Positions 9,046 through 56,035 of a stretch of DNA of 64,000 bases are shown here, in pieces. Origin of the DNA: a bacterium. Lineage in GTDB: Bacteria; Patescibacteriota; Minisyncoccia; Phycocordibacterales; Zambryskibacteraceae. Both the position numbers and the translations under genes were made by a program. Every line of letters starts with the position of its first letter. Within the stretch, counting starts at the first letter, position 1. Below the pieces are notes generated by a model. That model was not told the DNA's origin and did no database searches. It was given only the letters and a program-made list of their open reading frames with translations. The DNA lies in NCBI GenBank assembly GCA_030649135.1, contig JAUSGI010000008.1:1-64000 (forward strand). The letters run 5' to 3'.

Positions 9046-10026
9046 ATGGCTGATTACACAATACTTTTACCTTCAAAACCAAAGGTAATTTCCGAAAAAG
9101 GAGAGAGCGGCGTCTTCGAGATTGAGGGGCTTTATCCGGGTTATGGCCACACTCTTGGCAACAGTCTGCGTCGCATCATCCTCTCGTCTTTGCCCGGGGT
9201 AGCTATCACTTCGGTCAAAATTGCCGGTGTTAGCCATGAATTCTCCGTCTTGGATGGAGTGAAAGAAGATATTGTCACTATCCTGCTCAATCTCAAGAGA
9301 ATTCGTATGCGCTTCACTACCGATGAACCGCAGACTCTGTATCTCAAAGCGAAGGGTCTCTCTGCGCAGGACGGGGAAAAGGTGATTCGAGCTTCTGACC
9401 TGGAGGTGCCGGGTCAAGTAGAAATTCTCACACCGGATGAAATTATCGCCACCATCATTGGCAAAAACACGGTGCTCGATATGGAAATCAAGGCGGAAAA
9501 AGGTCTCGGTTTCATGCCCAAAGAAATGATAGAAAAAAATCGCGTGGATATCGGGACTATCGCTTTGGACGGTATCTTCACTCCAATTAGGCGCGCGAGT
9601 TATGAGGTGGAGAACATGCGTGTCGGGGACAGAACCGATTTTAACAAATTAAGAATGTCTATCGAGACTGACGGCACCGTTTCTCCTTCGGTGGCTCTCT
9701 CTTCCGCCATTGAGATTATGATAGGACAACTCAAGGCGATTATAGGTTTTCGAGAAGATGAGCCGGTAGCCGAAGAAAAACCGGCTCGAGAAGGTCGAGG
9801 TTCAGTCTCGAAGTCGGTGGCCGACCCTGAAGTGCTTAAGACTCGCGTGGAATCTCTGGAAGTTTCTCCCCGCACCAGCCATGCGCTTGCCCTTGCCAAT
9901 ATTCGCACGGTAGGTGGTTTGGCCCGCAAGAAAGAGAAGGACTTGCTAGAAATTGACGGTCTCGGAGCCAAGGGTATCCAGGAGATTAAAAAAGCCCTCG
10001 GAGAGTTCGGCATCACTTTAAAGTAA
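9046..10026 (+). CDS. rpoA: DNA-directed RNA polymerase alpha subunit
   Basis: N-terminal dimerisation domain and C-terminal aCTD helix-hairpin-helix. Confidence 0.9.
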   Translation: MADYTILLPSKPKVISEKGESGVFEIEGLYPGYGHTLGNSLRRIILSSLPGVAITSVKIAGVSHEFSVLDGVKEDIVTILLNLKRIRMRFTTDEPQTLYLKAKGLSAQDGEKVIRASDLEVPGQVEILTPDEIIATIIGKNTVLDMEIKAEKGLGFMPKEMIEKNRVDIGTIALDGIFTPIRRASYEVENMRVGDRTDFNKLRMSIETDGTVSPSVALSSAIEIMIGQLKAIIGFREDEPVAEEKPAREGRGSVSKSVADPEVLKTRVESLEVSPRTSHALALANIRTVGGLARKKEKDLLEIDGLGAKGIQEIKKALGEFGITLK

Positions 10027-10028
10027 TC

Positions 10029-10376
10029 ATGCGACATCATAATGCCAACAGAAAATTCGGCCGTGAAAGAAATCAGAGAGTCGCTCTCATGCGTTCCCTC
10101 GCGTATTCGCTGGTGCTCAAGGGCAAAATTAAAACCACCGAACCCAAAGCCAAGTCACTCCGGCCATATATGGAAAAACTTGTCACTTTAGGCAAGAAAC
10201 AAACTCTGGCTTCCCGCCGCGTGCTCGAGAGCCGAATTGGCGTAGAGGCCGCGAAAAAAATCGCGGGCACACTTTCGGCAACGTATAAAGACAGGGCCGG
10301 TGGCTACACTCGCATTACCAAAATGGGACCACGGGCTACCGATGCCAGTCCTATGGCTATCATCGAATTCGTATAG
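10029..10376 (+). CDS. rplQ: ribosomal protein L17
   Basis: MRHHNANRKFGRERNQRVALMRSLA. Confidence 0.95.
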   Translation: MRHHNANRKFGRERNQRVALMRSLAYSLVLKGKIKTTEPKAKSLRPYMEKLVTLGKKQTLASRRVLESRIGVEAAKKIAGTLSATYKDRAGGYTRITKMGPRATDASPMAIIEFV

Positions 10377-10395
10377 TTCGATAAACTCACCATAA

Positions 10396-10743
10396 ATGAA
10401 AACTCATATCATAGACGCCAAGGGTAGAGTGCCGGGACGGATAGCTACGGAGATAGCGGTCATTTTAATGGGTAAAGATAGAACGGATTTTGCCAGAAAT
10501 CGTATCCCGGACGTTTTAGTGGAAGTCATTTCAAGCTCTCAAATGTCGCTGAGTACTAAAAAATTAAGGGAAAAAATGTATGTCAGCCACTCCGGTTACC
10601 CGGGCAGTCTCCGACAAGAATCGCAAGGCCACGTAGTCGATACTAAAGGACCGCAGGAAGTGCTTCGCCGTGCTGTCTATGGCATGCTTCCCAAAAATAA
10701 ATTACGCGCCCAGATGATGAAGAATCTTAAGATAAAAAAATAA
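10396..10743 (+). CDS. rplM: ribosomal protein L13
   Basis: L13 N-terminal signature MKTHIIDAKGRVPGRIAT. Confidence 0.85.
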   Translation: MKTHIIDAKGRVPGRIATEIAVILMGKDRTDFARNRIPDVLVEVISSSQMSLSTKKLREKMYVSHSGYPGSLRQESQGHVVDTKGPQEVLRRAVYGMLPKNKLRAQMMKNLKIKK

Positions 10744-11682: not shown

Positions 11683-13593
11683 ATGGCAAAAATCATTGGC
11701 ATCGATCTTGGTACGACAAACTCCGCTGTTGCGGTGATGGAAGCCGGCCAGCCGAAAATTATCGAGAATGCCGAGGGTGCGCGTACCACTCCCTCTATCG
11801 CGGCTATTTCCAAAACCGGCGACCGCTTGGTCGGACTCCTTGCCAAACGTCAGGCGGTGACCAATCCTCAAAATACCATTTTCGGCATCAAGCGTTTTAT
11901 CGGACACACCTTCTCTGACCCCGCGGTTCAGAAGGACAAGGCCACCGTACCATTCGCGGTGCTTGCCGCTTCCGATGGTTCGGTGATGGTCAAGATGGGT
12001 GACAAAGATAATCGCCCGGAAGAAATTTCCGCCATGATTCTTCAGAAGCTTAAGGCGGACGCGGAAGCCAAGCTTGGTGAAAAAATTACGGAAGCCATTA
12101 TTACCGTGCCGGCCTATTTCAACGATGCTCAAAGAAAGGCGACCAAAGATGCCGGTCAGATTGCGGGACTCGACGTCAAACGTATCATCAACGAACCGAC
12201 TGCCGCCGCCCTGGCTTATGGATTTAATAAAAAAAAGAATGAGAAAATTGCCGTTTTCGACTTTGGCGGCGGCACTTTCGACATCTCCATCCTTGAAGTG
12301 GGGGATGATGTGGTCGAGGTAAAGTCCACCGATGGCGATTCGCACTTGGGGGGTAAAGATATTGACCAGAAGGTGCTTAACTACATCGCCGAGGAGTTCA
12401 AGAAGGAGTCCGGTATAGACGTTAGAAAAGATGCTCTGGCCCTTCAGCGTCTGGATGAGGCCGCCGAGAAGGCCAAGATTGAACTCTCCACCGCGACCGA
12501 AACGGAAATCAATATTCCGTTCATCACTTCCGATTCATCGGGCCCGAGACATTTGCTGTTAAAACTTTCCAGAGCGAAGCTCGAAGAACTTTCCAGAGAA
12601 TTTCTGGATCGAGCCATGGAAATTACCAAACGCGCCATGGAAGCCTCTCCGTTTAAAGTCGGTGACTTGCAGGAAGTTATTTTGGTGGGAGGGCAGACAC
12701 GCATGCCGATGATTGTGGAAGTAGTTAAAAAATTCTTTGGCAAGGAACCGAACAAGTCCATTAATCCTGACGAAGTGGTGGCACTAGGCGCCGCTATTCA
12801 AGGTGGGATTCTTGCCGGTGATGTCAAAGATGTGCTTCTGCTCGATGTTATTCCTCTCTCACTCGGTATTGAGACTATGGGTGGCGTTGCTACCAAGTTG
12901 ATTGAGAAAAATACCACCATTCCATCGGCAAAGTCGCAGGTCTTCTCCACAGCCGCCGATAATCAAACCTCGGTGGAAATTCATATCGTGCAAGGCGAGC
13001 GTGCCATGGCGACGGACAACAAATCTCTTGGTCGGTTTATCCTGGACGGTATTCCTCCGGCGCCGCGCGGCATGCCCCAGATTGAAGTGACTTTCGATGT
13101 TGACGCTAACGGCATTCTCAATGTGAAGGCTAAAGATAAAACTTCCGGCAAAGAACAATCTATCAGAATAGAGGCAAGGTCGAGTTTGTCGAAAGAAGAA
13201 ATCGAGAGGATGCAAAAGGATGCGGAGGCTCACGCCACAGAAGACCAAAAGAAAAAAGATTTGGTTGATGCTAAAAATCTTGCTGAACAACTTATTTACA
13301 CAGCTGAAAAATCTCTGAAGGATGCGCCTAGTATTCCGGATGATATTAAAACCGCAGTCAACGATAAAATAGCCGGGCTTAAGAAAGAAAAGGATAGCGG
13401 TACTGTTGAATCAATTAAATCCGCCACAGAGGCACTCTCTACCGAGATGCAGAAGATAGGGGAGTATCTTAGTAAGAATCCACCGGCAGGCGAAGCCGCC
13501 TCCGCTGGAAGCTCCGGCGAGCCACAGCCGGAAGTTAAAGATGCGGAAGTAAAAGAAGAACCAAAGAAAGACGATTCGGAACCAAAAGTTTAG
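11683..13593 (+). CDS. dnaK: chaperone DnaK (Hsp70)
   Basis: [18 protein letters not shown]; full-length Hsp70. Confidence 0.97.
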
Positions 13594-13633
13594 TGGATTT
13601 AAATAAAAACCCTTCGACAAGCTCAGGGTAAAC

Positions 13634-13675
13634 AAAACCCCGTCCAGACAGGCACGGGGCCTGTCTGAAACGGGG
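13634..13675 (-). terminator. GC-rich nested hairpin; on the minus strand it is followed by a T-rich run, so it terminates the 13682-14068 gene
   Basis: CCCCGT/ACGGGG outer stem and CAGACAGG/CCTGTCTG inner stem; minus strand reads ...GGGGTTTTGTTTACC. Confidence 0.55.
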
Positions 13676-13681
13676 CGGCGG

Positions 13682-14068
13682 TTAGAGAAGCTCGAGATCT
13701 CCGAAGAACATCTCGTGCAGGTTGATGTCGGGTTTGCCCTCGCCGTCGTTGTGGTAGAAAATGATACTCCAAGGGGCAGGCTGTCTGTTGATTCCGAATG
13801 AGATCGACGGTGTCACGGTATCCCTCGTCCACTGTCGGGGAAGTTGACTCGTGATCAGTGTGAATCCATTGGAATTGCCGTGTAGCTCGATCCCGTGGAT
13901 TGTACCGCTGATTCGAACGAGCCCTTCTTCTCCCCATCCTTTGGGTACTACCATTTCGTATGTGAAGGCGAACTTGCGGCCGATGAGCTCACGCTCTTCG
14001 GGTAAGCCCGCTTCAGTGAGGAGAGACTGCAGTTTCCTGCCCAACGCCTCCCTGGCTTGCGGATCCAT
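13682..14068 (-). CDS. hypothetical protein; GC-rich orphan inserted between dnaK and dnaJ
   Basis: ORF with SD GGAAGAGG upstream of the internal ATG at 14068; own terminator; no recognisable domain. Confidence 0.5.
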   Translation of the reverse strand: MDPQAREALGRKLQSLLTEAGLPEERELIGRKFAFTYEMVVPKGWGEEGLVRISGTIHGIELHGNSNGFTLITSQLPRQWTRDTVTPSISFGINRQPAPWSIIFYHNDGEGKPDINLHEMFFGDLELL

Positions 14069-14144
14069 TTCGAACCTCTTCCTGCATCTCTCGATGCACT
14101 GAAATCGCACAACTCTGGGGCTACGATACTATATTTGTGAGTTT

Positions 14145-14381
14145 ATGTCAAGTATACTTAAAGTCAAAAAATCTTATAATAAGTACATGCAAATTCTGGA
14201 TATAAAGTTGCACAAACAAGTTAAAATGGTTTCCAAAAGGCTTGGCTTAAATCCTCGTGAGGTTATAAATCGCGCAGTTTCTTCTTACCTCGGTAGTATG
14301 AAAGAACTCACAGACCTTCAGAAAGAGCTTCATCTGTGGGATGTTTTGTCTGCACAAACAATGCAAAAATATAAGTTCTAG
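14145..14381 (+). CDS. ribbon-helix-helix (CopG/MazE-like) antitoxin
   Basis: 78 aa; LDIKLHKQVKMVSKRLGLNPREVINRAVSSYL; sits 3 nt upstream of the MazF-like ORF. Confidence 0.6.
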   Translation: MSSILKVKKSYNKYMQILDIKLHKQVKMVSKRLGLNPREVINRAVSSYLGSMKELTDLQKELHLWDVLSAQTMQKYKF

Positions 14382-14383
14382 AT

Positions 14384-14707
14384 ATGAAACCGGGTGATGT
14401 ATATATTGTTCGTATTCCCGAACTCGGTACTCACGAACAGAGTGGAACAAGACCTGTAGTGGTCATTGCTCGAGTTACAAAAACCATCGTTACAATCATC
14501 CCTTGCACTGGAAATAAACTTGCTCTTCGTTTCCCATACACATATGAGATAGAAGCAACAAAAAGGAACGGTCTATCTGTCAATTCTGTAGCACTCGTAT
14601 TTCATATTCGCGCTCTTGACTCCTCTTTTCTTAAGGATAAAATAGGCGAACTCGATAAGAAAGTACTTGCAAATATACGAAAACAAGCAAGACAACTTAT
14701 TGGATAA
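14384..14707 (+). CDS. MazF/PemK-family endoribonuclease toxin
   Basis: PGDVYIVRIPELGTHEQSGTRPVVVIA (PemK/MazF N-terminal signature); 107 aa. Confidence 0.75.
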   Translation: MKPGDVYIVRIPELGTHEQSGTRPVVVIARVTKTIVTIIPCTGNKLALRFPYTYEIEATKRNGLSVNSVALVFHIRALDSSFLKDKIGELDKKVLANIRKQARQLIG

Positions 14708-14773
14708 ATTTTACAATGAAAGATTATTACCCCAGTAGCATAGCAAAGCTAGCTACGGGGCAGGCAAAATTCT

Positions 14774-15661
14774 ATGAAAGATTACTATAAGATACTCGGT
14801 ATAAGTCGTGATGCTTCAGAGGAGGAAATAAAAAAGGCCTTTCGTAAGCTCGCGCACGTTCATCATCCGGATAAATCTGGCGGCAACGAAGCGAAGTTTA
14901 AGGAAGCAAGCGAGGCCTACTCCGTGCTCTCCGACAAAAAGAAGCGTGCCCAATATGATGCCCCCGGTTTCGCGGGCTTTCAAGGCAGTCAAGCCGGCGG
15001 GGCAGGATTTGACCCATCCGGGTTTGGTTTCGATTTCTCCGGTTTCGGCAACGCCGGTTTCGATACGTCTGACTTGGGTGATATTCTTTCAAGCATTTTT
15101 GGTGGACGCCGTGTGCGCCGCGGTCGTGACATCGCTGTAGATATTGAGCTCTCTTTCCAAGAATCTATCTTCGGCGCGGAGAGAAAAGTGGTCATTAACT
15201 CAAAGTTTGTAAAGCAGAAGGAAGTTTCAATAGGCGTACCGCCCGGCATTGATGACGGTCAGATGGTTCGTCTCACCGGTCAGGGCGAAATTCTTGAGGG
15301 CGGGGTGCCAGGCGACTTGTATGTCAAAGTTCATGTTCGTAAGCATCCGTATCTGCGCAAAGAGGGATATAACCTGATAATGGATTTGGAAATTAAACTG
15401 ACCGAGGCACTCCTGGGCGCAGAAAAAATTATTCATACTCTAGACGGGGAAATTACTTTGAAAATTGCGGCCAGCACCAAACATGGCAGTATCTTGCGGG
15501 TTAAAGGGAAGGGAGTGCCAACCGGAGGTCGCCCCGCCTTCGCTGAAGCTTCGGCGGGTAAAAGAGGCGACCTCTACATACGCATCTCTGTCCAAATCCC
15601 AGAAAAACTTTCCCCAGATGCCCGCAGGACGGTTGAGGAATTGAAGAAACTGGGGTTGTAA
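14774..15661 (+). CDS. dnaJ: DnaJ-family co-chaperone lacking the Cys-rich Zn-finger (CbpA-like)
   Basis: J-domain with HPD, G/F-rich linker, C-terminal substrate domains; no CxxCxGxG repeats. Confidence 0.85.
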   Translation: MKDYYKILGISRDASEEEIKKAFRKLAHVHHPDKSGGNEAKFKEASEAYSVLSDKKKRAQYDAPGFAGFQGSQAGGAGFDPSGFGFDFSGFGNAGFDTSDLGDILSSIFGGRRVRRGRDIAVDIELSFQESIFGAERKVVINSKFVKQKEVSIGVPPGIDDGQMVRLTGQGEILEGGVPGDLYVKVHVRKHPYLRKEGYNLIMDLEIKLTEALLGAEKIIHTLDGEITLKIAASTKHGSILRVKGKGVPTGGRPAFAEASAGKRGDLYIRISVQIPEKLSPDARRTVEELKKLGL

Positions 15662-15670
15662 TTGTTTAAA

Positions 15671-15698
15671 TTGACAGGGTATCTGTTTGGGGTAGAAT
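15671..15698 (+). promoter_or_regulatory. sigma70-like promoter (TTGACA-N16/17-TAGAAT) for the small Zn-ribbon gene
   Basis: TTGACAgggtatctgtttggggTAGAAT, then GGGAGGAGGTG SD and the ATG. Confidence 0.5.
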
Positions 15699-15716
15699 TT
15701 CGGGAGGAGGTGAACT

Positions 15717-15917
15717 ATGAGCCTTTGTGCGTCTTGTGGTCTCCAGCTTTCCGGCGAAGCCGGGCTATGCCCACACCATCATTGCGTTTATGGCGACGAC
15801 TGGGCTGTTGCCAACCGGCTGATGTGCGACCTGCTTCACCGCCGGCGGGTACCACCGCGTTTGTCGGTAACCGAGCGTGACGACGACTTCTGGGGGGCGA
15901 CTGGCGACGCGGCCTAG
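15717..15917 (+). CDS. small GC-rich Cys/His-rich (zinc-ribbon-like) protein, 66 aa
   Basis: very strong SD GGAGGAGGTG 7 nt before the ATG; CASCG...CPHHHC; own promoter and terminator. Confidence 0.55.
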   Translation: MSLCASCGLQLSGEAGLCPHHHCVYGDDWAVANRLMCDLLHRRRVPPRLSVTERDDDFWGATGDAA

Positions 15918-15949
15918 AATCACTAAGGCCGTCTTCGGACTCGTGCCGC

Positions 15950-15991
15950 GCGGGCGACTTCGGTCGTCGCCCGTGCGGTGTTTTATTTTTA
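15950..15991 (+). terminator. rho-independent terminator
   Basis: GGGCGAC-ttcggtc-GTCGCCC followed by TGTTTTATTTTT. Confidence 0.65.
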
Positions 15992-16008
15992 TATGGTCAA
16001 TAAAAATC

Positions 16009-16041
16009 GACCCTCGGTTCGCGCGAGCGAGACCGAGGGTT
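16009..16041. repeat. copy A of a repeated GC-stem hairpin (ACCCTCGGT...ACCGAGGGT); terminator-like for the minus gene 16060-16401
   Basis: 9-bp perfect stem; near-identical copy at 56003-56035; the minus strand has a T-run after the stem. Confidence 0.6.
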
Positions 16042-16059
16042 GGGTCCATTCTCTGTTGT

Positions 16060-16401
16060 TCAGACTTGCTTGAGAGCGGCAGGGTGGCGTTTCCGCCAAA
16101 CGTTGTGGAGCTTCCACCGCACCACGATTACTCGTTTTTCCGTGGCGCTCCAGACCAGACAGGCGACGCTAGGATCGCCTGGCGATCCTCCCTGAGAGTT
16201 CCAGAGAGAAACCACTTTCTTCTTGAGCTTCTTTTGGTAAGAAGACGGGTTGACGAGCCAACCTTTGACCCGCTCGTCCTCGAGGGAATAGCATTGCTTG
16301 ATGAGGCCTGTCTCCGTGAGATGTTTCCGGAGGTCGTAGCCCCAGATCCATCCGTCCACCTTCTTCTGCTTGTCGTGGAGGTAGAGATTAATCTTGTTCA
16401 C
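16060..16401 (-). CDS. hypothetical GC-rich protein, 113 aa
   Basis: GTG start preceded by AAGGAGAG; terminator hairpin downstream; no recognisable domain. Confidence 0.5.
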   Translation of the reverse strand: MNKINLYLHDKQKKVDGWIWGYDLRKHLTETGLIKQCYSLEDERVKGWLVNPSSYQKKLKKKVVSLWNSQGGSPGDPSVACLVWSATEKRVIVVRWKLHNVWRKRHPAALKQV

Positions 16402-16523
16402 CTTTTCTCTCCTTAAGTGCGCGATTTGTCCTTTTTAAACGTACATTACATTATATTGTCTGTCAATAATTTTATAAAAATAGGCTTTAGCTATCCCGAA
16501 AAAATCTGCTTTAATTAATATTG

Positions 16524-16553
16524 ACATTTTGGCCTGTTTTGTGCTATAATTAG
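16524..16553 (+). promoter_or_regulatory. consensus sigma70 promoter (TTGACA-N18-TATAAT)
   Basis: TTGACAttttggcctgttttgtgcTATAAT; the short leader contains the TCTCTCTAGAGAGA palindrome next to the SD. Confidence 0.55.
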
Positions 16554-16592: not shown

Positions 16593-16925
16593 ATGTTTTG
16601 GTTTCTCGTCATTTGCGCGGGATTCGTTGGCGCAGTAGCTGATGTGCTGATCAGCTACTGGAGCCAGACAAATCGACTGGTGTGGTGGCTGGCCGGTGCG
16701 GCGGGAAGTCTCGGATTTGTAACAGGACTTGGCCTGATCATCCGGCTGGGCGTGATCGGCGGGCATACCCTAACGGTCGCGCTGGTGCTCGTGGTCCTCG
16801 TCAATGTCGCTTTCGTGGCGGCATGGGACGTCATCTACAACGTAGCAGGACCAACCACACTGCAGTGGTTGGGAATCGTCCTAGCTCTCGGGGCAGTAGT
16901 CTGCCTCGAGCTTGGGCGGAAATGA
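16593..16925 (+). CDS. SMR/DMT-like four-TM small multidrug or guanidinium-type exporter (110 aa)
   Basis: four hydrophobic helices; acidic residue in TM1 (AVADVL); very GC-rich. Confidence 0.5.
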   Translation: MFWFLVICAGFVGAVADVLISYWSQTNRLVWWLAGAAGSLGFVTGLGLIIRLGVIGGHTLTVALVLVVLVNVAFVAAWDVIYNVAGPTTLQWLGIVLALGAVVCLELGRK

Positions 16926-17009: not shown

Positions 17010-17519
17010 ATGACGAATCTTTTGCCCAAGTTCGCTTTTTTTGTAGCCGGTACTGGCCGGCACCATGATCGTCTCCAAGCCTTCGATCGAGCTCTTCTTA
17101 GCGCCGGTCCCTTTGCGCATAATTTGGTTTCAGTATCAAGTATCATACCGTCAGAGTGTAAAATTATTTCTGCAGAAGAAGGTTTTAAAATGCTGATCCC
17201 GGGTCAAATAGTTTTCTGCATCATGGCTAGACAAGATACCAATACTAGTGGCCATACCGCTTCATCAGCAGTAGGTATTGTGCAATCGGGAAAATTTACA
17301 AATTTTGGCTATATTTCCGAATACCATGGAAGTGCTTCCAGTAAAGATGAGGCGGAAAATATAGCGAAAAAACTGGCGCGAGAAATGTTTTCGTTAAAGG
17401 TTGGCGTTATGCTTGAAGAACTTGATATAAAATTTCTTGATGCTATCGGAGCATCTATCGAGAACTTTGGTGATGACCAATGGACATGTGCTGTTTCTTT
17501 GTGTGTTTTCGTAATCTAG
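17010..17519 (+). CDS. pdaD: pyruvoyl-dependent arginine decarboxylase (PdaD/PvlArgDC family)
   Basis: FFVAGTG...AFDRALLSAG...NLVSVSSIIP (Ser-Ser self-cleavage motif), ~165 aa. Confidence 0.65.
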   Translation: MTNLLPKFAFFVAGTGRHHDRLQAFDRALLSAGPFAHNLVSVSSIIPSECKIISAEEGFKMLIPGQIVFCIMARQDTNTSGHTASSAVGIVQSGKFTNFGYISEYHGSASSKDEAENIAKKLAREMFSLKVGVMLEELDIKFLDAIGASIENFGDDQWTCAVSLCVFVI

Positions 17520-54822: not shown

Positions 54823-56004
54823 GTGGCTATAAAACTACACAATACTCTGACAGGTTCGCTTGAGGCATTTGAGCCTCTCAAATCCGGTAAGGTCGGGATG
54901 TTTGTCTGTGGACCGACTGTCTACGATTTCTCACACTTAGGCCATGCGAAGACATACATTCAGTTTGACTTCCTCGCCCGTTATCTGGGTTACATGGGCT
55001 ATGAAGTGACGTATGTGCAAAATATTACTGATATAGACGACAAGATAATAGAGCGTGCTCGTGAAAAAAATGTCGAACCAAACATGTTGGCAGAGGAGTA
55101 TGAGAGATATTATCTCGAAGATATGGCGGCGCTCAATAATATTAGTGTCGATAAATACGCAAGGGCCCATGATTATATTCCGCAAATTGTCGACCAAGTG
55201 AAACGCCTATTGGCGAAGGATATGGCGTATCGCATTTCCGATGGATATTATTTTGATATCAAACAGTTCGAAGATTACGGAAGGTTATCGGGACGTTTAT
55301 CGTTGGAGCCCGGCGATGCGGTATCTAGAATTGATGAAAACCAGGAGAAAAGAAACCCCGGCGATTTTTGTCTCTGGAAGTTTCGAAAGGAAGATGACCC
55401 ATATTGGTCAACAGAACTTGGTGAAGGTCGCCCGGGCTGGCATATAGAAGATACGGCTATTACCGAAAGCGAACTTGGTCCCCAATACGATATCCACGGC
55501 GGCTCAATGGATTTAATTTTTCCGCACCATGAAGCGGAGATCGCTCAAATGGAATCGGCGTCGGGTCTGAAACCCATGGTTAAGTACTGGTTACATACAG
55601 GATTTCTGAATGTTAAAACCGAAAAAATGTCCAAAAGTTTGGGTAACTTCATTACCATTAGAGCGGTAACAGAGAAAGGTGTTTCCCCGTTGGCACTAAG
55701 ATATCTCTTTCTGCTATCTCACTACCGCACTCCGACCAACTTCAGCTTCGAAGCACTTGAAGCGGCGGAAAATGCCTATAACAGATTAAAGAAATTTGTA
55801 GCCGGCTTGTTGGGCACAGGAGTTGTAGACGAAAGTTACAAACAAAAATTTACGGAAAAGTTGGAAAACGATCTCAATACACCGCAGGCCTTGGCTGTAG
55901 TTTGGGGTCTAATTAAAGATAAAGACATCTCACCGGAGGATAAACTGGCCACTATTTTGGATTTCGATAAAGTACTTGGGCTGGGACTTGAATATAAAAA
56001 ATGA
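54823..56004 (+). CDS. cysS: cysteinyl-tRNA synthetase (compact; GTG start inferred)
   Basis: CGPTVYDFSHLGHAKT (HIGH), KMSKSLGN. Confidence 0.85.
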   Translation: MAIKLHNTLTGSLEAFEPLKSGKVGMFVCGPTVYDFSHLGHAKTYIQFDFLARYLGYMGYEVTYVQNITDIDDKIIERAREKNVEPNMLAEEYERYYLEDMAALNNISVDKYARAHDYIPQIVDQVKRLLAKDMAYRISDGYYFDIKQFEDYGRLSGRLSLEPGDAVSRIDENQEKRNPGDFCLWKFRKEDDPYWSTELGEGRPGWHIEDTAITESELGPQYDIHGGSMDLIFPHHEAEIAQMESASGLKPMVKYWLHTGFLNVKTEKMSKSLGNFITIRAVTEKGVSPLALRYLFLLSHYRTPTNFSFEALEAAENAYNRLKKFVAGLLGTGVVDESYKQKFTEKLENDLNTPQALAVVWGLIKDKDISPEDKLATILDFDKVLGLGLEYKK

Positions 56005-56035
56005 CCCTCGGTTCGCATGAGCGCAACCGAGGGTC
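56003..56035. repeat. copy B of the repeated hairpin (GACCCTCGGTT...AACCGAGGGTC); bidirectional terminator-like
   Basis: same stem sequence as 16009-16041; flanks match for another ~20 nt. Confidence 0.6.

Follow-up and report, generated by a model that had tools for sequence, protein, structure and literature searches.

In a 64,000-nucleotide stretch of DNA from a Zambryskibacteria-like bacterium (contig JAUSGI010000008.1, positions 1 to 64,000; hereafter, the window), a small gene, orfA, and a toxin–antitoxin (TA) pair of the MazF type lie between the chaperone genes dnaK and dnaJ, and two further small genes, orf66 and orf113, follow dnaJ. The reading that we favor, with a probability of about 70%, is that these genes form a mosaic of independently acquired accessory genes seated in two variable slots around dnaJ. 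What the region records is ordinary accessory-gene turnover around a conserved chaperone operon, with no new system: the MazF TA family gains one new member, and the three small proteins belong to uncharacterized families.

An accessory insert separates dnaK from dnaJ

Relatives were gathered by a DnaK-based scan with one genome per GTDB species, which returned 80 loci; 8 kb were fetched on each side of dnaK. All 80 belong to the Patescibacteria/Parcubacteria, and the best of them are Zambryskibacteria-like, with 92%, 90%, and 88% DnaK identity to the window (92% for locus L017 and 88% for a Zambryskibacteria metagenome-assembled genome); the host is evidently a Zambryskibacteria-like bacterium of the Patescibacteria (candidate phyla radiation, CPR). 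A tblastn comparison of all window proteins with these loci shows that the order rpsI-grpE-dnaK-dnaJ is conserved and that dnaJ begins 0–150 bp after dnaK in the closest relatives, as it does in many more distant ones; in L017, the dnaK stop codon overlaps the dnaJ start. In the window, the corresponding spacing is 1.18 kb and holds orfA on the minus strand, a gene for a 78-aa protein, and mazF. Because the closest relatives carry dnaJ directly after dnaK, this insert appears to be accessory, which is also how a comparison of spacings proposed in a preliminary description of this DNA comes out. An ancestral rpsI-grpE-dnaK-dnaJ array of abutting genes would thus have been split by an insert carrying orfA and a divergently transcribed type II TA operon.

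None of orfA, the 78-aa gene, this mazF, orf66, orf113, or the next gene downstream (orf110) occurs at any of the 80 loci within 8 kb on either side of dnaK. Nucleotide similarity to the relatives (blastn) extends through dnaK and dnaJ and then disappears until ~20.3–20.6 kb, at a histidine-kinase-like gene, and each relative has a different segment of 3–6.6 kb after dnaJ. The dnaK–dnaJ neighborhood is, on this comparison, apparently a local plasticity zone in Zambryskibacteria-like genomes.

A long hairpin, an inverted repeat (I1) at 13638–13674, lies between the convergent dnaK and orfA genes; read along the minus strand, it has UUUUGUUU directly behind it and constitutes the orfA terminator (dG -36.7 kcal/mol, z -4.17), and on the plus strand it has no U-run. 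A search of the region against Rfam at E<=1 returned only anti-hemB (E 0.019, below the gathering score), which corresponds to this hairpin, and no structured RNA reaches the gathering score anywhere in the window. The same hairpin is present 3' of dnaK in L018 and in L006 and is absent in L017 and L020. In L018 (90% DnaK identity), the dnaK–dnaJ gap is filled by a different, 125-aa hydrophobic minus-strand open reading frame (ORF) at 9897–10397, with no TA pair. Since L018 has the same hairpin followed by a different gene, the position has been hit repeatedly, suggesting that the hairpin marks a reusable insertion point. At the right border of the insert, alignment with L097, L017, and L018 reveals an extra 57 nt immediately before dnaJ (14717–14773, plus strand). 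This segment duplicates the 5' end of dnaJ (ATGAAAGATTATTAC...AAAATTCT) over ~24 nt (MKDYYKIL), split by a 33-nt hairpin-forming insert (z -2.9), and appears to be a scar left by recombination.

A sister lineage has lost the toxin and kept the antitoxin

The dnaK-TA-dnaJ organization, which the preliminary description expected relatives to share if it were ancient, is found in none of the 80 loci over the 8 kb fetched on each side of dnaK; a sister lineage, known from the metagenome contigs L006 and L097, does have the insert, minus the toxin. There, orfA, the divergent 78-aa gene, and dnaJ stand in the same order as in the window, and mazF is reduced to 22 in-frame codons (MRPGLDKKIFANIRKQARQLIG), the first 4 joined to the last 18. 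Pairwise comparison of window and sister gives dN/dS values of 0.12 for the antitoxin, 0.28 for orfA, and 0.07 for dnaJ, at a dS of 0.7–1.2. Because the sister shares the insert at this synonymous divergence, the insert is not recent, contrary to the suggestion in the preliminary description that the small genes had been newly acquired. The insert would predate the split between the two lineages, the sister having later deleted the toxin in frame while retaining an antitoxin that appears to be under purifying selection. We regard this pair of loci as a clean natural example of TA decay, and infer that the antitoxin gene may be retained because it supplies a promoter for dnaJ or has a regulatory role.

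Directly after dnaJ, L097 carries a 91-aa ORF and a 108-aa PemK toxin (E 8.6e-15), then an M16 peptidase and a homolog of orf110 (111 aa, 58% amino-acid identity), and it has neither orf66 nor orf113. This second, unrelated TA pair (3148–3742 in L097) occupies the place of orf66 and orf113 in the window; its 91-aa ORF is read as Phd/YefM-like and has no Pfam match. The idea that the orphan antitoxin cross-neutralizes the second PemK toxin of L097 was considered and found unsupported, that toxin being only 21% identical to the MazF of the window.

The toxin–antitoxin pair

The 107-aa product of mazF matches the PemK family (Pfam PF02452) over residues 2–105 at E 6.8e-19 (68.5 bits against a cut-off of 23.1), as well as a MazF-like PHROG (2.3e-16), and its best solved relatives in the PDB are Bacillus subtilis EndoA and staphylococcal MazF (E ~5e-8). 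R23 in the segment 'GTRPVVVI' aligns with EndoA 'GVRPVLVI', and T42 in 'iipcT' aligns with 'aaiT', positions that we take to correspond to the catalytic residues R25 and T48 of B. subtilis MazF. By homology, the protein is a PemK/MazF-family endoribonuclease toxin, predicted to cleave mRNA sequence-specifically and independently of the ribosome. The full-length family match bears out the toxin assignment of the preliminary description, which was also right that the pair is AT-richer than its surroundings (35–39% GC); the gap between the two genes, which share an orientation, measures 2 nt instead of the 3 nt given there.

On the grounds of position, size, conservation, and weak Arc- or Omega-like matches, the 78-aa protein is a putative antitoxin, possibly of the ribbon–helix–helix (RHH)/Arc type. 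It matches Arc-like repressors among the PHROGs at E 0.0033 and 0.033, and its core matches Pfam Omega_Repress weakly, at E 0.058; no Pfam family is reached at the gathering score and no PDB entry is matched. Of the earlier label 'RHH antitoxin', the second word thus stands as a candidate function and the first as a possible fold. The protein is 83% identical in L097 and L006, its N-terminal 14 residues included. The NCBI call for this gene begins at Met15, giving 64 aa instead of 78 and leaving out 14145–14186. In the scheme that we propose, the 78-aa product would bind and neutralize MazF and repress the operon.

DnaJ and its proposed uncoupling from dnaK

The 295-aa DnaJ matches the Pfam families DnaJ (3.6e-24) and DnaJ_C (2.2e-41), lacks any match to CXXCXGXG, and contains zero cysteines; it scores 249 bits against the NCBIfam model DnaJ_bact, below the 377-bit cut-off, and close relatives match it contiguously over residues 1–295. 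It appears to be a class B/CbpA-like J-protein, as in the closest relatives. A canonical class A DnaJ was ruled out, as the protein has no zinc-finger domain and no cysteine. Across the collected loci, a DnaJ with neither zinc-finger domain nor cysteine is seen in L017–L026; in more distant Patescibacteria, from L027 onwards, the tblastn matches are broken up in a pattern that fits the insertion of a domain, presumably the zinc finger.

Three features suggest that dnaJ may no longer be co-transcribed with dnaK and may be served instead by promoters that lie within the TA module or ahead of it. The sole hairpin after dnaK has no U-run on the plus strand but has an antisense gene behind it; the 3' end of mazF contains weak promoter-like sites (9–10 of 12 consensus matches); and the relative that deleted the toxin still has both this 3' end and the antitoxin. 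Dependence of dnaJ on TA-side promoters would in turn account for the survival, in the sister lineage, of an antitoxin without its toxin and of the 3' end of mazF.

orfA and its relation to the toxin–antitoxin operon

As the preliminary description held, orfA has its own Shine–Dalgarno sequence and terminator: AGGAAGAGG precedes the ATG, and the post-dnaK hairpin (z -4.2) with its UUUUGUUU tract follows the gene. Homologs are rare, with four among 5.8 billion clusters and one partial copy added by a metagenome scan, and they lie in CPR-like metagenome contigs without a conserved neighbor. The sole close homolog, that of L006 and L097, is 62–66% identical. The family has the invariant motif AGLPEERELIGRKFAFTY; a 26-residue block, LQSLLxxAGLPEERELIGRKFAFTY (residues 13–38; window 13955–14032), is invariant, the remainder of the protein being 43–62% identical. 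The DNA of this block is 80–84% identical, consistent with constraint at the protein level, and the gene as a whole is, by its dN/dS, apparently under purifying selection. An AlphaFold2 (AF2) model, the structural check suggested at the outset, was obtained with moderate confidence (predicted local distance difference test, pLDDT, 77.7) and comprises one long helix and a beta sheet; a fold search with it returned no convincing structural neighbor. With low confidence, we suggest that OrfA is a small binding or adaptor protein.

The strongest competitor to a mosaic is that a single three-part module of orfA, the antitoxin, and MazF came in together, its third component, OrfA, acting for instance as regulator, chaperone, or second effector. 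The window and L006/L097 do share the same divergent layout around a 76-nt shared control region, and selection on orfA would suit such a role. However, the other orfA homologs (L003, L004/L005) have no TA neighbor, the post-dnaK hairpin of L018 is backed by a different minus-strand gene with no TA pair, orfA differs strongly from the TA genes in base composition (54% versus 35–39% GC), and it persists after the toxin has been lost. We therefore consider a tripartite module unlikely.

A much less probable alternative is that the common ancestor of the clade already had the dnaK-TA-dnaJ organization, which would then be ancient, and that the relatives lost it. The sharing of the insert by a sister at a dS of ~0.7–1.2, together with the post-dnaK hairpin of L018, would be expected in that case; against it stand the short or overlapping dnaK–dnaJ junctions of the closest and many distant relatives (including L017), the absence of the TA pair and orfA from the flanks of all 80 loci, the duplicated dnaJ start, which looks like an insertion or recombination scar, and the atypical GC content of the TA genes.

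orf66 is a member of a family typical of Rokubacteria

The second slot, from dnaJ to orf110, would hold two unrelated monocistronic genes. The first, orf66, has the promoter, Shine–Dalgarno sequence, and GC-stem terminator attributed to it earlier: a TTGACA-16-TAGAAT promoter (11/12 matches), GGAGGAGGTG ahead of the start codon, and a terminator consisting of a 14-bp GC stem and a U-run (z -4.2). The NCBI annotation omits the gene (15717–15917). An exact-match look-up of its protein leads to a 324-member cluster typical of Rokubacteria, and a word-indexed homology search returns 99 clusters at 44–85% identity, the Rokubacteria-typical protein being 80–85% identical. In Rokubacteria, the neighborhood of the gene is fixed, consisting of PLD, an 85-aa Transgly_assoc protein, a 63-aa protein, the 66-aa protein itself, a convergent B12-radical SAM gene, and SDR. 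Further copies lie on phage-like contigs with a phage-type primase and DNA polymerase, and on six IMG/VR contigs. All other loci of the family that we saw have 66–70% GC, leaving the window as the sole low-GC CPR context.

Outside the window, the family occurs solely in Rokubacteria chromosomes and phage-like elements of high GC content, so that orf66 would have arrived by transfer across phyla and then gained a host-type promoter, ribosome-binding site (RBS), and terminator. Identity at the DNA level is 72–75% and confined to the coding sequence (CDS), with a dN of 0.11–0.13 and saturated dS. This synonymous saturation, seen against every sampled homolog, again speaks against recent acquisition. 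By distance ranking, from which the three smallest distances were left aside as probable alignment-trimming artifacts, the window copy is nearer to the Rokubacteria chromosomal type than to the phage-borne copies. We conclude that orf66 is most probably a genuine, selected gene that was acquired horizontally across phyla. Its distribution offers a lead on how genes may enter CPR bacteria, few of whose hosts are known, be it by host–symbiont exchange or by way of phages.

The residues C4, C7, C18, H21, and W29 of orf66 are invariant, and the resulting CxxC-10-CxxH spacing suggests a zinc ribbon. No Pfam, NCBIfam, PHROG, or PDB entry is matched by the protein at any threshold.

orf113 defines a small-protein family with a confident model

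The gene orf113 runs on the minus strand, converging on orf66. This frame is indicated by its homologs, by a codon-position GC pattern typical of coding DNA (GC1/2/3 of 0.56/0.37/0.71), and by its own signals, which comprise an AAGGAG RBS, a TTTATA-17-TATAAT promoter-like site, and a hairpin-plus-U-run terminator. A word-indexed protein search finds nothing for orf113, not even itself, because NCBI annotated a 116-aa plus-strand ORF (16060–16416) opposite it. Exhaustive HMMER searching reveals a family of 106 homolog clusters (47 below 1e-10) at 30–56% identity, with conserved Trp, Tyr, and Pro positions; many members have an extra N-terminal segment of ~50 residues. The homologs stand alone in CPR-like contigs; contigs were read for three members, and these look like Patescibacteria. 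Two divergent paralogs lie within 3 kb of one another in L099 (945–1442 and 3632–4123), and one copy lies in L077 (16933–17379). In all three CPR loci examined, the orf113-family genes are 8–15 GC points richer than their low-GC genome, so that high GC goes with the family in each of these hosts and is not, as had been supposed, a sign of recent import.

The structural model of orf113 is confident (pLDDT 96) and shows an alpha/beta fold that is weakly C-type-lectin-like; the structure check proposed earlier thus yielded a confident model and a weak resemblance. No match was found in the BFVD viral structure library. As no signal peptide is apparent by eye, the protein is probably cytoplasmic; its most likely role is that of a ligand- or protein-binding module. 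Overall, orf113 would represent a small-protein family sampled so far from Patescibacteria-like DNA, probably a cytoplasmic binding module, whose high-confidence model defines an uncharacterized family that merits structural or interaction study. The possibility that orf113 is the variable protein of a diversity-generating retroelement was rejected, since its CDS has no repeat elsewhere in the window and only the terminator hairpin finds a match; no reverse transcriptase is present among the annotated neighbors, the window not having been scanned exhaustively for one. The hairpin in question (GACCCTCGGT-12 nt-ACCGAGGGT, preceded by an A-run) occurs at 16009–16040 and again at 56003–56034, with 0 occurrences expected in shuffled sequence, and may be a repeated palindromic terminator element of the host.

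Two separate and more striking readings, which we regard as improbable, are that orf66 records direct gene flow into an episymbiotic-type CPR genome from the host of the CPR cell, with Rokubacteria as the host of this Zambryskibacteria lineage, and that the orf113 family is a new, possibly Patescibacteria-restricted intracellular C-type-lectin-like binding module.

orf66 and orf113 do not behave as partners

In the preliminary description, the two convergent genes were proposed to form a TA pair or a regulator and its target. Their adjacency, convergence, small size, and strong signals would agree with such an arrangement. Profile searches of 114 fetched loci turned up 21 further orf66-family loci and, at two loci, three further orf113-family copies; nowhere but in the window did the two families share a locus. 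In Rokubacteria, orf66 sits beside a radical SAM gene and genes for small membrane proteins, the orf113 homologs are solitary, and the sister lineage (L097) has neither gene. Moreover, each of the two genes has its own promoter and terminator, and neither is matched by PADLOC or by a known toxin or antitoxin family. The two genes are thus, as far as sequence can tell, not functional partners, and a paired function is very improbable.

Least likely of all, and in our estimate close to negligible, is that the GC-rich segments, orf66 above all, come from a Rokubacteria genome in the same assembly and were joined to this DNA by chimeric assembly or binning: the 80–85% protein identity of orf66 and its 63% GC in a window of 46.5% might suggest so, but DNA identity is only 72–75% and ends exactly at the CDS limits, the flanks of orf66 are AT-rich promoter and terminator sequences of host type, a second copy of the orf113 terminator motif lies 40 kb from the first in the window, and two independent Logan contigs from SRR13727527, tiling 13607–15562 and 15533 to ~20505, span the junctions and join the 3' end of dnaJ to orf66, orf113, orf110, and a gene for pyruvoyl-dependent arginine decarboxylase (PvlArgDC).

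Gene inventory, sequence signals, and searches

Table 1. Genes, transcription units, and the toxin remnant discussed in the text.
Feature	Position	Strand	Basis or remark
rpsD, rpoA, rplQ, rplM, rpsI, grpE, dnaK (upstream block, in this order)		+	ORF list, direct reading
dnaK, 636 aa; conserved left anchor of the variable region	11683–13593	+	DnaK matches, synteny
orfA, 128 aa	13682–14068	-	ORF list; GC 54%
Putative antitoxin gene, 78 aa	14145–14381	+	GC 35%
PemK/MazF toxin gene, 107 aa	14384–14707	+	GC 39%
dnaJ, 295 aa	14774–15661	+	DnaJ and DnaJ_C domains
orf66 transcription unit	15671–15993	+	Promoter 15671–15698; RBS 15703–15712; CDS 15717–15917 (66 aa, zinc-ribbon-like); terminator 15943–15991
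orf113 transcription unit	15998–16478	-	Promoter-like site 16478–16450; RBS AAGGAG 16414–16409; CDS 16401–16060 (113 aa); hairpin 16040–16010 plus U-run
orf110, 110 aa, small hydrophobic protein; right anchor of the orf66/orf113 slot	16593–16925	+	Homolog in L097
mazF remnant in the sister lineage	L097 4656–4726; L006 58–128		In-frame deletion

All the features that the preliminary description listed are present where it had placed them, as checked against the ORF list and by direct reading of the signals. orf110 has no family match; since the sister lineage has it too, we take it as the right anchor of the second slot. Its promoter, at 16521–16550, is perfect (TTGACA-18-TATAAT, 12/12, extended with TG). 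Downstream of it lie PvlArgDC and a carbamoyltransferase gene, which are convergent and whose 3' ends overlap by 65 nt (17455–17519). orf113 has a GC content of 55% and orf110 one of 58%. Across the stretch, promoter-like sites are enriched (12 versus 5.0 ± 2.4 in shuffled sequences) and terminator-like sites overall are not (6 versus 5.0), though three strong intrinsic terminators fold much better than their shuffled counterparts (z -3.7 to -4.2).

No defense-system model of PADLOC is matched by orfA, the antitoxin, MazF, orf66, or orf113. Pfam, NCBIfam, and PHROGs hold nothing for orfA, orf66, or orf113, and sequence-profile searches of the PDB with alignments A1, A2, and A4 and with the antitoxin gave nothing meaningful. 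Scans of viral contigs found none with orf113, orfA, the antitoxin, or MazF. A search for tRNA and tmRNA genes found none and therefore no attachment-site candidate. A literature search on TA pairs between dnaK and dnaJ, or on TA systems of Zambryskibacteria and Patescibacteria, found nothing relevant.

Discussion

Several points weigh against a mosaic of independent acquisitions as we have drawn it. DnaK and DnaJ identities rank the relatives differently, which makes the order of the insertion events uncertain. In which direction orf66 was transferred, and by what vehicle, is read from the distribution of the family, and, given that 80 dnaK neighborhoods were covered and ~100 clusters returned, a reservoir of orf66 within the CPR may exist. 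The promoter matches that would make dnaJ dependent on the TA module are weak, as are those behind the antitoxin fold (E 0.003 to 0.06), and both the toxicity of the TA pair and the expression of the genes are predicted from sequence.

The interest of the locus lies in the likely cross-phylum origin of orf66, the model of orf113, the toxin deletion in the sister lineage, and three errors in the public annotation (locus tags Q7R69_025xx). There, orf113 is replaced by a gene on the wrong strand, orf66 is unannotated, and the antitoxin start is truncated, so that the present analysis corrects the public record. Its practical value is indeed mostly corrective. The three small genes first described as orphans turn out to be members of real families, each having homologs. 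The accompanying judgment that they are functional genes and not noise holds up well, given those homologs, the dN/dS of orfA, the low dN of orf66, and the confidence of the orf113 model.

Comparison with known systems

Among C-type-lectin-like (CLec/CTLD) proteins, such as the Bd2740 fiber tip, intimin/invasin D3, TvpA, Mtd, and FGE, orf113 stands apart in having no disulfides, no Ca2+ or carbohydrate motif, and, by eye, no signal peptide or fiber stalk. orf66 resembles small zinc-ribbon proteins (CxxC...CxxC/H) in its CxxC-10-CxxH arrangement and differs from them in a conserved C-terminal half, GDDWAxANRIMCDFFHR, that has no known counterpart.

The TA pair is closest to MazEF/PemIK (Kis-Kid), with B. 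subtilis EndoA (MazF-bs, ydcE) as its nearest relative. Like these toxins, the window protein is a full-length PemK_toxin that keeps the Arg (RPV) and Thr positions, and it is preceded by a small same-strand gene at a 2-nt gap; unlike EndoA, it is ~5 residues shorter in the loop that follows the RPV strand. EndoAI, the antitoxin of B. subtilis, belongs to the RHH class, with which the weak Arc/Omega-like signal of the 78-aa protein would agree. The window antitoxin, by contrast, matches no antitoxin family significantly, and a BLASTP comparison with EndoAI, using an approximate sequence of the latter, gave no alignment. The location of the pair inside a dnaK–dnaJ operon is likewise unusual for MazEF/PemIK systems. 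Finally, L006 and L097 fit the pattern of orphan, toxin-less antitoxins left by TA decay, with an intact antitoxin gene beside a mazF remnant, whereas in the window the toxin is intact.

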